A DNA stretch of 64,000 nucleotides from assembly GCF_009931435.1 (NCBI RefSeq), contig NZ_CP043414.1, one strand, 5' to 3'. The notes below the pieces were generated by a model. That model searched no databases, was not told the origin of the DNA, and saw only the letters and a list, made by a program, of their open reading frames with translations. The stretch comes from Escherichia coli (lineage in GTDB: Bacteria > Pseudomonadota > Gammaproteobacteria > Enterobacterales > Enterobacteriaceae). Shown one piece after another: positions 48,973-53,096 of the stretch. Position 1 is the stretch's first letter. Each line of letters starts with the position of its first letter. A program made the position numbers and the translations under genes.

Positions 48973-49356
48973 ATCGCACGTCTCTTCTCCTTGCGACACC
49001 GGCAGGACACCGGGCGCTTATGGTCGGCAAGCGACGTCCCTGTAGCAAGGCAAACCATCGCTTCACGTGAGATGCTGAAAACGAAAGCTCATCCTTCTGC
49101 ACTGGCGCACGTCGCCAGATAGTATTGTTAATAAAGCGTAGTGAAACTTTTGCACAAAACAATACAAACCATGTGGTTTTATCTTTTAGCGATAAAAATG
49201 GACCTATTTTTCTTTTGCAGGGCATTGGGGACGTTTAGCCAGTTGCTAAACGAGTAAATGAGAAGGAATTCATGGTGATGAAATGATCAAACTGCTGTTA
49301 TTTCACGCTATCAATGCGGTTTTGGCTGTTTTTCAGGCAAACGAACAAATTAGGGG

Positions 49357-49385
49357 TTTACACGCCGCATCGGGATGTTTATAGT
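49357..49385 (+). promoter_or_regulatory. serT promoter (-35 TTTACA, 17-bp spacer, -10 TATAGT, GC-rich discriminator)
   Basis: tttaca at 49357-49362 and tatagt at 49380-49385 followed by gcgcgtc; tRNA 5' end 12 nt downstream. Confidence 0.65.
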
Positions 49386-49397
49386 GCGCGTCATTCC

Positions 49398-49485
49398 GGA
49401 AGTGTGGCCGAGCGGTTGAAGGCACCGGTCTTGAAAACCGGCGACCCGAAAGGGTTCCAGAGTTCGAATCTCTGCGCTTCCGCCA
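49398..49485 (+). tRNA. serT: tRNA-Ser (anticodon UGA)
   Basis: 88-nt sequence GGAAGTGTGGCCGAGCGG...TTCGAATCTCTGCGCTTCCGCCA with long variable arm and cuUGAaa anticodon loop. Confidence 0.95.
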
Positions 49486-49493
49486 AATAATCA

Positions 49494-49528
49494 AGGGGTT
49501 ACCAAATGGTAGCCCCTTTGCTTTTTGG
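49494..49528 (+). terminator. Hairpin plus T-tract immediately after serT (probable tRNA terminator)
   Basis: ggggttacc-aaa-tggtagcccc stem followed by tttgctttttgg. Confidence 0.55.
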
Positions 49529-49748
49529 GCTCTTGGTATAAACTTGGTATACCAATTGGTATATTTTCTGCCAAAAAATTCCTAAAATCCCCTCCAGCAC
49601 AAACAATCACTTGCTCATTCATACTTTATCAAGAAAATATCCTTGCAAGTTATGTTGTTTCTTTCTGCGTCCCGACAGGGTGTCATGGTTCCCCACTTCT
49701 CTCGGGATGGACACTTAACGGACGAGAAATTTTCAGGTGTCATTCAGA

Positions 49749-49787
49749 CGCGCTTCGGCCCCGGATTGGCGAAGCGCGCTTTTTTTC
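49749..49787 (+). terminator. Intrinsic terminator in the serT-prophage junction
   Basis: cgcgcttcg...cgaagcgcg stem followed by cttttttt. Confidence 0.6.
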
Positions 49788-49976
49788 TCAGATTATTTCG
49801 TTTTGCCTGAGTGTTGAATAACGCCACTACAGTTATATAAGCTGGAAATCATTCAATACTCGCACTATCGAAAGTTCACCAGCCAACCGCAGCACATTCC
49901 TGCATACGACGTGTCTGCGGCTTTTTTCATCTCTGCCTGTAATTACTGATTAACGTAAAATCCTCTTCCCCGATAT

Positions 49977-50507
49977 TTACTGCTCTGGCTTTTGTGGCCA
50001 TTCCGGGTTCGCTGAATCCACCCGGCTGAGCAGGACGCTGTAACGCTCCCATGCCGACAGCCGGGTTCGCTCTTCTTCCGTGGCCATATTCAGCCTTACT
50101 GACCGCTCCAGAAGCCGGATGATGGCATCTGCTTCACTGAGCAGCGTGGCCTTGCGTTGCTCTGTCTGTCTGTTGACTTCCTCTGGCGAATACTCACGTT
50201 TCCTCACCTGACCGTCCAGATACATCCACTGCCCCGAATCGTCTGCACGGCGGTTCGCCGTTATATCTGCCACCTCAACAACACTTAATCCCGCCGGATT
50301 AAGCGTTGAGGCATCCCGGGTGATGGCAACGATAATATTGTTATCATCGTAAGCCATCTTTATTGTGTCTTTCTGAAAGTTACTCACTTCTTCATACCAG
50401 TTTCTTCCGTCCTCTGAAAACAACCAGATAACATCAAAATTTTTTGTCAGTTGATACTGAGCAACGGTTTTGGGATTACCTGCTGTAATATTTTTTAAGT
50501 GCTGCAT
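49977..50507 (-). CDS. tfa: Tail fibre assembly protein Tfa
   Basis: 176-aa ORF immediately downstream of the tail fibre gene. Confidence 0.8.
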
Positions 50508-50510
50508 TAC

Positions 50511-53096
50511 TTATACCTGCGATACGTTAAACCATGTGCCGTTTATGTATTTTTGCACCGGCCGGTAAACCGCTGAGTTATCGCCATCAGCATCCCCGAC
50601 AAGACAAAGCCCCGTAATGACATGGCCGGACTTCTCATACGTCACGCCTTTTTGCATGCCCTGAACAACACGCGTACCCAGCCGGATATCCCTGACATAG
50701 CGGATATCAAAATTACTGTAATCGGAAGGATTAACGCGCCCGGACACATTCAGCCCTTTACTGACCTGAATGCTGCCGTTTGTAAAGCGCATTACACGTG
50801 CGTTACCGGCGTAAACATCAAGATTACCGTCGCCGTTTTGTTTCAGGCCTGTGTCGCCCCTCCCCAGCGCAAGTGAATGACCGCCCAGCGTATTCTGTGC
50901 ACCGATACCCACCGCGCCATCCAGGGTCCCGCCCGTTGTCGTGAACAGACGCTCCCAGTCCGCCTCAAAGCCATAGCCATCACGGGCGGAGCGGTAAAAT
51001 ATCCCGCCATTCCGGTAATTCACCCGAAACTGGACCGCAGGGCAGCTGCCTTCCCCTGTATTAAAATGAAGAATTAAGGATGATGCGCCACCATCCTGTG
51101 CACAATAAGCGCCACTGTCCAGGTTCCAGGCGACGGCATCTGTATCGGCGAGCGTTTCCCCGGTTTTTCCCAGCGCAAAGGCCGGTGGCTTGTTTTTCGT
51201 GTTGTAGTCACGACGCCAGCCAGGGGAATAACCATCACCATGATTAATATAGGTAAACTGCGCATTCGCCGTTCCACTTCCGCTGGATGTTGTCGGTGTG
51301 GTTATGCGGATCGTCATCGCTGACTTTATCCCCATCACCTCAATGACAGCGCCGGCGAGATGAATATTTCCGCAGCCCGTATCCGTGATGATTTTATTAT
51401 TACCGTAAGACCAGGAGCCCTTGCACATCCAGTATGGGTGGTTAAATGCGCCCTGAGACTCCAGCCACCCGATAAACTGTGCGGTCGTCCAGTCTCCTGT
51501 CGTTGTGCTTACGGCCCCACCGAAAGCACGGCAGGCACCAATATTTTTCGTAAAGGTGTCTTTGTCGGGGACATCCGCACCGTTCTTATCTTTCTGCAGT
51601 CGTTTCTCAGCATTCTCACAGGCGGCTTTTACTGCCTTTGGTGTTGCCGCCAGTGACTCGGAAGTGCTGTTGGTTGCACTGCTGAGCTGGACTATCCCCT
51701 TTTTCGTCGTGCTCGCATCCTCAAGCGCCACGGCAGACGCAATATCCTCCGCCCGTTTTGCCGCAGTCTCAGCGCGCGTTGCCGCGGATTCTGCCGTGCT
51801 TTTGCTCTGTGCTGCCGCTGTCGCACTGCCAGCTGCCTCTGTCGCCTTCGCGGATGCCGTCGTGGCACTGCCCTGCGCCTCTGACGCCAGCCTTGCCGCC
51901 TCATCTTTTGAAGCTGACGCCGATGATGCTGATGACGCCGCCGAACTGGCGGACGATACGGCTGCCGTTTTTGAGGATTCTGCGCTGGTTTCCGACGCTT
52001 TCGCGTTCGTCTCGGATGTCCTCGCAGCGGAAGCAGACCTCGCTGCTGCAGTGGCCTGTTCAGTGGCTTCGCCAGCCTTCGTTGTGGCTGCTGAAGCGGA
52101 CGATGCGGCGCTTTCTGCCGATTTTCCGGCGGCGGTGGCACTGGCTGAGGCCTCCTCCGCTTTAACTGACGCCTCACGGGACGATGATGCAGCGGCAGTT
52201 TCTGAGCCTGCTGCTGCGGAGGCACTCTGTTCCGCTGCCGTTTCAGAAGACCTGGCGTTCGTCTCAGACGTCTTTGCCGCCTTCGCGGAATTTCCTGCCG
52301 CCGTTGCCGAGGAAGCTGCGCTACCGGCGCTCGAGGCTGCGCTCGTTTCTGATGATTTTGCCGCCTCTTTTGAGGCCGCCGCATCCCTGGCTGACGTGGC
52401 AGCTTCTGACGCTTTCGTGGTCGCGGTGGATGCAGACGTGGCGGCTGATTGTTGTGACGCTGCCGCATTCGTTTCTGACGTTTTCGCGGCACCGGCACTG
52501 GTGGCCGCCGCGCTTTTTGAGGACTCTGCAGCGGCAGCACTTTTTGATGCCTCAGCGGCCTTTGCTGAGGCTGTTTCTGCGCCGGAAGACGCTTCCTGAG
52601 CCGACGTCGCAGCCTGTCCGGCGGACGTGCTGGCGGCGCGTGCTGAGTCCGCAGCATCAGTCGCATGGGTTGCCGCCTCACGGGCTGATGTACCGGCATC
52701 GCTGGCGGATTTTTTCGCGGCTGCCGTGTTCTGTGCCACTGCGGACGCGTTACGCGCCACCTCTTCCACCATCAGTTCAAAACGGCGCAGTGCCTCCGGA
52801 CGGGCATCATCCTCCGTCATGGCACCGAGAAAATCATTCAGCGTACCGGGTTGGGAATCTTCATACACGGTGATGGTCCCGGCATGTGAAGGCGGAAAAC
52901 CGTCAACCAGCAGGATGACACCGTACTGGCCGTACTCAACGTCCATACTGTAACGCCCGGCTTCATCCGGATTTTCTGAGGCCACCGTGTTCACCACCAC
53001 CGTGGTACTGTTACGTTTTGCTTTCAGCTGAATGGTGCAGTTCTGTACCGGTTTACCTGCACCGTCTTTCAGCACGCCTGAAATCTTTACTGCCAT
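50511..53096 (-). CDS. stf: Side tail fibre protein Stf with long Ala/Ser/Thr-rich repeat region
   Basis: 861-aa ORF; conserved N-terminus (MAVKISGVLKDGAGKPV...), central about 350 aa low-complexity repeats, distinct C-terminal domain. Confidence 0.85.
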   Translation of the reverse strand: MAVKISGVLKDGAGKPVQNCTIQLKAKRNSTTVVVNTVASENPDEAGRYSMDVEYGQYGVILLVDGFPPSHAGTITVYEDSQPGTLNDFLGAMTEDDARPEALRRFELMVEEVARNASAVAQNTAAAKKSASDAGTSAREAATHATDAADSARAASTSAGQAATSAQEASSGAETASAKAAEASKSAAAAESSKSAAATSAGAAKTSETNAAASQQSAATSASTATTKASEAATSARDAAASKEAAKSSETSAASSAGSAASSATAAGNSAKAAKTSETNARSSETAAEQSASAAAGSETAAASSSREASVKAEEASASATAAGKSAESAASSASAATTKAGEATEQATAAARSASAARTSETNAKASETSAESSKTAAVSSASSAASSASSASASKDEAARLASEAQGSATTASAKATEAAGSATAAAQSKSTAESAATRAETAAKRAEDIASAVALEDASTTKKGIVQLSSATNSTSESLAATPKAVKAACENAEKRLQKDKNGADVPDKDTFTKNIGACRAFGGAVSTTTGDWTTAQFIGWLESQGAFNHPYWMCKGSWSYGNNKIITDTGCGNIHLAGAVIEVMGIKSAMTIRITTPTTSSGSGTANAQFTYINHGDGYSPGWRRDYNTKNKPPAFALGKTGETLADTDAVAWNLDSGAYCAQDGGASSLILHFNTGEGSCPAVQFRVNYRNGGIFYRSARDGYGFEADWERLFTTTGGTLDGAVGIGAQNTLGGHSLALGRGDTGLKQNGDGNLDVYAGNARVMRFTNGSIQVSKGLNVSGRVNPSDYSNFDIRYVRDIRLGTRVVQGMQKGVTYEKSGHVITGLCLVGDADGDNSAVYRPVQKYINGTWFNVSQV

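Follow-up and report, generated by a model that had tools for sequence, protein, structure and literature searches.

A probable attL junction of a lambda-like prophage within the tRNA gene serT of Escherichia coli

In islands that occupy tRNA genes (tDNA islands) the gene is split on integration, the copy carried by the element restores the gene, and the opposite end of the island is marked by the displaced fragment (Hudson et al., 2015, PMC4383910). Crossover centered on the anticodon defines the commonest class in the Islander survey of these elements (PMC4383910). The serT gene is a published site of prophage integration: it is occupied in STEC O121:H19, tandem prophages reside at serT in STEC CC119 (serT_1-3), and an Stx2f prophage is located at serT in E. 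albertii. The junction described here lies in a stretch of 64,000 nucleotides of E. coli DNA, referred to as the window, and is of a known kind at a known site. The value that is added is an exact definition of the att sequences and a correction of the prophage boundary.

The host side of the junction comprises the hyaC, hyaB and hyaA genes, which extend on the minus strand up to position 48999, followed by serT. The tRNA gene (49398-49485, plus strand) was identified as tRNA-Ser(UGA) by ARAGORN and matched the Rfam tRNA family RF00005 with a score of 57.5 bits. Its sequence is identical to K-12 serT at all 88 positions. A promoter-like site for serT on the plus strand (TTTACA-17-TATAGT, 49357-49385), which is host DNA, was located in a consensus scan with 10 of 12 matches, and identity with K-12 across the promoter region begins at 49380. 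The scan of 49000-50100 detected no second promoter-like site, and none inside the junction interval. On the phage side, tfa (49977-50507, minus strand) encodes a tail fibre assembly protein of 176 aa that matched Pfam family PF02413 (Caudo_TAP) with E = 5e-30. The gene is the final one of the prophage late operon and is annotated in relatives as specifying a tail fiber assembly protein. From 49977 to the end of the window the DNA is an unbroken lambdoid tail region on the minus strand, and the tail open reading frames are uninterrupted over at least 14 kb (tfa, 176 aa; fibre, 861 aa; J, 1159 aa; tape measure, 853 aa). The 861-aa tail-fibre reading frame (50511-53096, minus strand) has a long low-complexity middle section rich in Ala, Ser and Thr which generates long spurious reading frames elsewhere, for example at 51505-52599 on the plus strand and 51692-52699 on the minus strand. 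The counterpart of this gene is annotated as a truncated pseudogene in N18-04097 and MS 119-7.

The empty site in K-12 W3110 has the order hyaA-serT-yccA-tusE. Searches with tblastn and blastn revealed that yccA and other K-12 DNA found downstream of serT are absent throughout the 64-kb window. An earlier note on this DNA had proposed a prophage junction at serT with the 3′ end of tfa nearby and with yccA missing from the window. Each of these proposals was upheld: the junction is confirmed by the att comparison described below, tfa ends at 49977, and yccA is absent, having been displaced. The same note regarded serT, its promoter and the adjacent hairpin as intact. All three indeed are present, but the hairpin is phage DNA and not part of the host locus.

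The att core was delimited in a four-way comparison of the empty K-12 site (attB), attP of the free phage Evi, attL in the window, and attR of a close relative. The table of exact matches contained K-12 attB, Evi attP, both attL and attR of N18-04097, O157:H7 attL, and the window. An identity block of 65 bp, denoted block O (CGGTCTTGAAAACCGG...CCGCCAAATAA, 49426-49490), is common to attB, attP, attL and attR, and is present exactly in O157:H7 attL also. The block begins in the anticodon stem, takes in the rest of the tRNA and the sequence AATAA, and terminates 5 bp beyond the CCA end. When aligned to the empty serT-yccA site, as the earlier note had suggested, the window is identical to K-12 through 49490, just past the tRNA, and departs from it at 49491. 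Identity to Evi attP extends from 49426 to ~49567. At the far prophage end in N18-04097 a displaced 3′ fragment of serT commences at the same base and is followed by the native K-12 terminator. The table yields the textbook set BOB′, POP′, BOP′ and POB′ in which O corresponds to 49426-49490. On the basis of the limits of identity with K-12, Evi attP and attR of the relative, the att core takes in the last 60 nt of serT, and the hairpin at 49493-49526 belongs to the phage. The gene therefore is a hybrid in which the 5′ 28 nt are host-only and the 3′ 60 nt are within the identity block, and, judged by these limits, all DNA from 49491 onward is that of the phage. With a probability of roughly 0.9, a lambda-like temperate phage entered serT itself through recombination by a tyrosine integrase, and the interval represents its attL junction (B-O-P′). 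The proposal in the earlier note that the att site is within 49529-49976 and outside the tRNA was not borne out; an att core over the 3′ end of the tRNA, which that note had named as contrary to its view, is what the comparison found. The direct repeat at the other prophage end that it had recommended as a search target was recovered in the relative N18-04097 as the 65-bp block, but not within 49529-49976.

The window terminates at 64000, before the other prophage end, and attR, int and yccA were deduced from relatives that are 96-99% identical. The best matches in the collection of E. coli genomes, none of them at 100%, are 99.3-99.4% identical. The window is collinear with N18-04097, its closest complete genome, over 30000-64000, and the prophage in that genome is ~45 kb in length. 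At its int end the order is exonuclease, DUF4224 protein, tyrosine integrase, int-proximal arm, the 65-bp block, the native K-12 hairpin, and intact yccA. The genome of BCE049, which was read at the level of gene order, possesses the same int-proximal arm and the order xis-int-yccA. Both the regenerated serT and the displaced fragment were read in N18-04097, and the window shows the end with the regenerated gene. The tRNA was thought previously to be at the tail-fibre end with the integrase far away, which agrees with the two closest complete genomes where the integrase is ~45 kb distant beside intact yccA.

The phage genes alternatively might be a remnant, with yccA and its neighbors deleted or rearranged, such that the junction no longer is a functional attL of an excisable prophage. 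The far prophage end lies beyond the window, and the distal arm occurs in five times as many genomes as the int-proximal arm (747 versus 135), which implies that many serT prophages have an int end that has diverged, been replaced or been lost. Moreover, in K_EC180 (L008), where 49568-49845 is matched at 100% identity, the tfa, tail and J genes immediately after this segment are truncated pseudogenes. As the K_EC180 prophage is degraded, the same junction does exist as a decayed remnant, and the prophage in the window need not be complete. Nevertheless, the tail reading frames that are uninterrupted over at least 14 kb in the window, and the collinearity of the tail genes with the ~45-kb prophage of N18-04097, make a remnant unlikely. 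The position of attL would be unaffected either way.

If a lambda-like phage integrated into serT as outlined above, attP would carry a 65-bp copy of serT that begins in the anticodon stem and continues for 5 bp beyond the gene, equivalent to 49426-49490 in the window. Integration would cut serT and the phage copy would regenerate an identical, functional gene. The phage additionally would supply a new terminator for serT, T1 (49493-49526), whereas the original 3′ serT fragment, its native terminator and yccA would be shifted to the other prophage end beside xis-int. By analogy with the relatives, this far end is expected ~45 kb away and would consist of xis-int, an arm of ~140 bp with CTTGGTATA, the 65-bp block, GATAAGGGGTTAGCTAAATGCTAACCCC, and yccA. 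Strand exchange most likely occurs within the anticodon loop CTTGAAA, a putative 7-bp exchange region (49430-49436), with the halves of the anticodon stem acting as core-type inverted repeats. These halves (49425-49429 and 49437-49441) form an inverted repeat that flanks the loop. The proposed site of exchange derives from the start of block O in the anticodon stem, at the second base of the latter (49426; stem 49425-49429), which is the signature of the anticodon-centered Islander class. The block runs from the 5′ half of the anticodon stem to, and past, the tRNA 3′ end as do those of class A, and the block is the same in every copy. The integrase of the relatives and of Evi is a protein of 339 aa with a PF00589 domain that is encoded next to attP and is outside the window. 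The integrase of the relatives is homologous to residues 1-318 of lambda Int, including the arm-binding N-terminal region (PDB 1z1b, E = 2e-17). An 83-aa DUF4224 protein that is encoded upstream of int, also outside the window, falls in an excisionase PHROG.

Beyond the core is the int-distal attP arm (49491-49567), phage DNA that is common to all serT-integrating phages of this type. A scan of viral contigs for the junction between the proximal arm and the core recovered eight contigs, three of which (L014, L018 and L020, from IMG/VR) display P-O-P′. In these three contigs and in Evi the distal arm is contiguous with the int-proximal arm and int. The order in Evi is the int stop codon, an arm of 141 bp, the 65-bp block, a hairpin of the type in the window, and three copies of TTGGTATA. 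Homology of the arm stops right after GGTATATTTT, where L014, L018/L020 (equivalent to Evi and O157:H7) and the window all differ, and O157:H7 matches the window as far as 49567. Because homology to the window stops right after GGTATATTTT in every phage compared, the functional end of the arm was placed near 49567. An exact-match scan of the viral contigs produced no match to the junction between the arm and the adjoining segment, module B, in the window.

Three direct repeats of TTGGTATA on the plus strand, which are candidate arm-type Int sites, commence at 49533, 49544 and 49556 with spacings of 11 and 12 bp in a cluster at 49533-49563, and an inverted copy is located at 49548-49555. The cluster accounts for four of the five occurrences of TTGGTATA in the 64 kb, where ~1.0 is expected. 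The int-proximal arm contains one exact copy (L003:25049) and a TTGGT partial copy, and the repeats are retained in every attP examined (Evi, L014, L018 and L020) and in O157:H7. The TTGGTATA motif is not known to be related to the lambda arm-site consensus. The cluster includes a perfect 16-mer palindrome, tataccaattggtata (49548-49563), within ggtataccaattggtata (49546-49563). The palindrome that had been noted previously at about 49537-49558 is thus real, although those coordinates are a few bases astray and it actually occupies 49546-49563. The TTGGTATA repeats, including this palindrome, are probable candidates for arm-type sites recognized by the N-terminal domain of a lambda-type integrase, an assignment made from the sequence of the arms. 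A 15-mer, TTTTCTG(C/G)CAAAAA(A/G), abuts a TTGGTATA copy in both att arms on opposite sides (49564-49578 and L003:25028-25042). Evi and O157:H7, in which homology ceases at 49567, lack the distal copy of the 15-mer. The 15-mer may be a site for an accessory factor, or may be there by chance.

Three predicted intrinsic terminators on the plus strand separate serT from the tail-fibre operon, each composed of a hairpin followed by a T-run. The first, T1 (49493-49526), is phage-borne and comprises a hairpin with an 11-bp stem (49493-49518) and a T-rich tail to 49526, with a folding energy of -20.1 kcal/mol (z = -3.5). The T1 hairpin, AAGGGGTTACCAAATGGTAGCCCCTT, is similar to the native K-12 serT hairpin, AAGGGGTTAGCTAAATGCTAACCCCTT, but is clearly distinct in sequence. 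The native hairpin is found at attR behind the displaced tRNA fragment. In the circular phage T1 is positioned downstream of int, across the core. A third variant of the hairpin, GATAAGGGGTTACCAAATGGTAACCCCTT, follows the 65-bp block in contig L015 (IMGVR_UViG_2778261065_000020) and precedes a single copy of GGTATATTTT. It is intermediate between the native K-12 and phage terminators, which hints that the phage arm may have been derived from the region downstream of serT in another host or phage lineage.

The second terminator, T2 (49746-49786), is directed towards the tail genes and consists of a hairpin (49746-49780) and a run of seven T residues (49780-49786). It had been recognized previously at 49749-49787, a position confirmed here with minor adjustment. 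The fold has an energy of -18.9 kcal/mol, and two pairs of the stem show compensatory changes among seven homologues. The third, T3, has a hairpin at 49887-49920 and a T-run at 49921-49928, is weaker (-13.5 kcal/mol, z = -1.9), and was absent from the earlier note. Both T2 and T3 are found again in other lambdoid phages, likewise at the tail-fibre end. In the free phage ev099 the T2 block has int on one side and tfa on the other and is oriented like int, which places T1-T3 facing transcription from the int/attP side in the circular phage. There, the three terminators would halt int-side (lambda 'leftward') transcription before its antisense entry into the tail-fibre operon, and in the lysogen they would halt read-through from serT before this operon. 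Insulation of the tail-fibre operon is most likely the function of T1-T3, as suggested by their positions and orientations.

The segment from 49568 to 49976, between the arm and tfa, is mosaic, non-coding phage DNA of the 'b-region' type. Module B (49568-49840), which is located between the attP arm and the tfa flank, contains no gene annotated in four relatives and yielded no match to Pfam or Rfam. At least 80% of the module is covered in 76 genomes. It is 100% identical in K_EC180 (49568-49845) and also in TK3896, and a copy that is 92.5% identical is found where the tail end of a prophage adjoins truncated ompW in SLK172. In the latter (L007:2706-3267) the module is between truncated ompW and a tfa fragment. 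The effector genes espK and espO follow. This non-coding module thus has been recombined beside another chromosomal junction. Module C (49841-49933, plus strand) is a conserved lambdoid intergenic element which includes T3. Its identity is 93.8% with lambda 24160-24240, a segment flanked by ea31 and ea47, and 92.5% with HK97.

Part of module B is distributed much more widely than the whole, as the segment 49730-49840 is responsible for the majority of matches among the 943 genomes that have one to the module. In the loci that were inspected it always is at the tail-fibre end in constant orientation relative to the tail genes. These loci include prophages beside zinT, and APEC O1 where a serU-like tRNA sequence is adjacent. 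A block of 21 nt, TTTTCAGGTGTCATTCAGACG (49730-49750, plus strand), is just upstream of, and overlaps, the stem of T2. Twenty of its 21 positions are identical in seven prophage ends with differing flanks at three kinds of chromosomal site, and the sole change is T for A at the sixth base in APEC O1. The block (in the window, L006, L007 and L010-L013) outlasts the variable hairpin stem and the flanks, a degree of conservation beyond the need of a plain terminator. The neighborhood of 49730-49786, which encompasses the 21 nt, the hairpin and the U-run, occupies lambdoid prophages at serT, beside zinT/serU, and next to truncated ompW among the loci inspected. It is improbable, on present comparisons, that this element is an undescribed phage regulatory RNA, either a retroregulator of int resembling sib, which integration would uncouple, or the 3′ module of a small RNA.

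A related possibility, that 49568-49840 is a cargo region ('moron') which encodes a protein of 98 or 55 aa, or a small RNA that ends at T2 with the 21 nt as its functional region, was judged to be quite improbable. Prophages of O157:H7 and Evi do carry effector cargo (an espV fragment and tccP2) at this exact position. The 21 nt, hairpin and U-run resemble the 3′ module of Hfq-type small RNAs, and prophage small RNAs are common in pathogenic E. coli (PMC4104026). However, no gene has been called here in any of four annotated relatives, and neither reading frame, 49525-49821 nor 49643-49810, has a Pfam match. The former, a frame of 98 aa with a TTG start that the earlier note listed as being of poor quality, is present but was rejected as a gene: it starts in the attP arm, crosses the recombination boundary between the arm and module B, reads through T2, is broken by a one-base indel in SLK172, and is unannotated in relatives. 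Both frames were discarded on the grounds that the frame is broken in the homologue and a terminator is within. Against a small RNA, the interval has neither a sigma-70-like promoter nor an Rfam match. In a scan of 49100-50200 with Rfam 15 (E <= 1) the tRNA alone scored, other hits with E of 0.6-0.8 being far below gathering thresholds. Ahead of the 21 nt, the serT/ompW group and the zinT-side (serU-adjacent) group share no conserved sequence, and known anti-sRNAs are sited at the PR′ moron site (PMC4104026). The anti-sRNAs AgvB/AsxR and the Pas small RNAs were rejected as identities for module B as their position is wrong: the papers place them at the PR′ moron site or near the lysis/Q genes.

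The scheme of the earlier note, in which the host DNA of serT and its terminator is unaltered and the phage resides in the serT-yccA intergenic region with att within 49529-49976, is very hard to sustain: although the tRNA is intact with a good terminator behind it, and some papers loosely describe such prophages as 'downstream of serT', the hairpin differs from that native to serT, is inside attP of the free phage Evi and the IMG/VR contigs in continuity with the int-proximal arm, the displaced serT 3′ fragment and native hairpin are at the int end of a relative, and there is no K-12 intergenic sequence past 49490. Integration into yccA itself was eliminated as yccA is intact beside int in relatives.

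The serT/arm junction (49476-49567) was detected in 747 of 5426 complete E. coli genomes at up to three places per genome. The best match was in the band of 90-95% identity for 4637 of 5443 matching records; among the matches listed in this band, all end at query position 226 (window 49525) and have the K-12-type hairpin. For annotation, the prophage boundary should be set at 49426-49490 inside serT and not behind the terminator, with the phage as the source of the terminator and of the 3′ 49-60 nt of serT. No other tRNA-Ser(UGA) gene is known in E. coli. If serT is the sole one, the lysogen relies on phage DNA for expression of serT. Through the comparison, attB, attP, attL and attR are cleanly defined for a family of phages that is present at serT in ~14% of complete E. 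coli genomes, including the effector prophage of O157:H7, and this definition is of use in prophage typing and the design of excision PCR. The serT junction opens no new biological question.

The arrangement corresponds closely to that of class 'A' tDNA islands (Williams, 2002; Hudson et al., 2015, PMC4383910), in which one end likewise has the tRNA gene that was regenerated and the other the 3′ fragment that was displaced, and an identity block begins in the anticodon stem and reaches the 3′ end of the gene. Nothing substantive differs, the crossover here being deduced from the start of the block. Among prophages at serT, the tccP2/espV prophage of O157:H7 E32511 and Evi (LR597642.1) have an identical 65-bp core, hairpin and three TTGGTATA repeats up to 49567, in the same orientation with the tail-fibre end beside serT. 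Beyond 49567 they diverge: O157:H7, which has the espV fragment and tccP2 where the window has module B, and Evi bear effector cargo and another tail-fibre set, whereas the phage in the window has modules B and C and tfa.

Comparison with lambda reveals further parallels. As with tI and sib of lambda, T1 and T2 are beyond attP and downstream of int in the same orientation in the circular phage, and are separated from it by integration. There is no sequence similarity between the two sets. Retroregulation by sib relies on an extended hairpin, sensitive to RNase III and present solely in int transcripts that read through, which reduces Int synthesis; the likeness of T1 and T2 is one of geometry alone, a functional analogy. 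T1 doubles as a tRNA terminator, unlike tI and sib. Both phages have a lambda-type tyrosine integrase, an xis-like gene upstream, and int transcribed towards attP, with attP between int and the tail or b region. Clustered short repeats are present in both arms of each, ~75-135 bp from the crossover in the serT phage. The triple arm site of lambda overlaps the end of int according to the lambda annotation, whereas the three-copy cluster of the serT phage is on the int-distal arm. Finally, the lambda core is 15 bp between gal and bio, whereas the target of the serT phage is a tRNA gene with an identity block of 65 bp.
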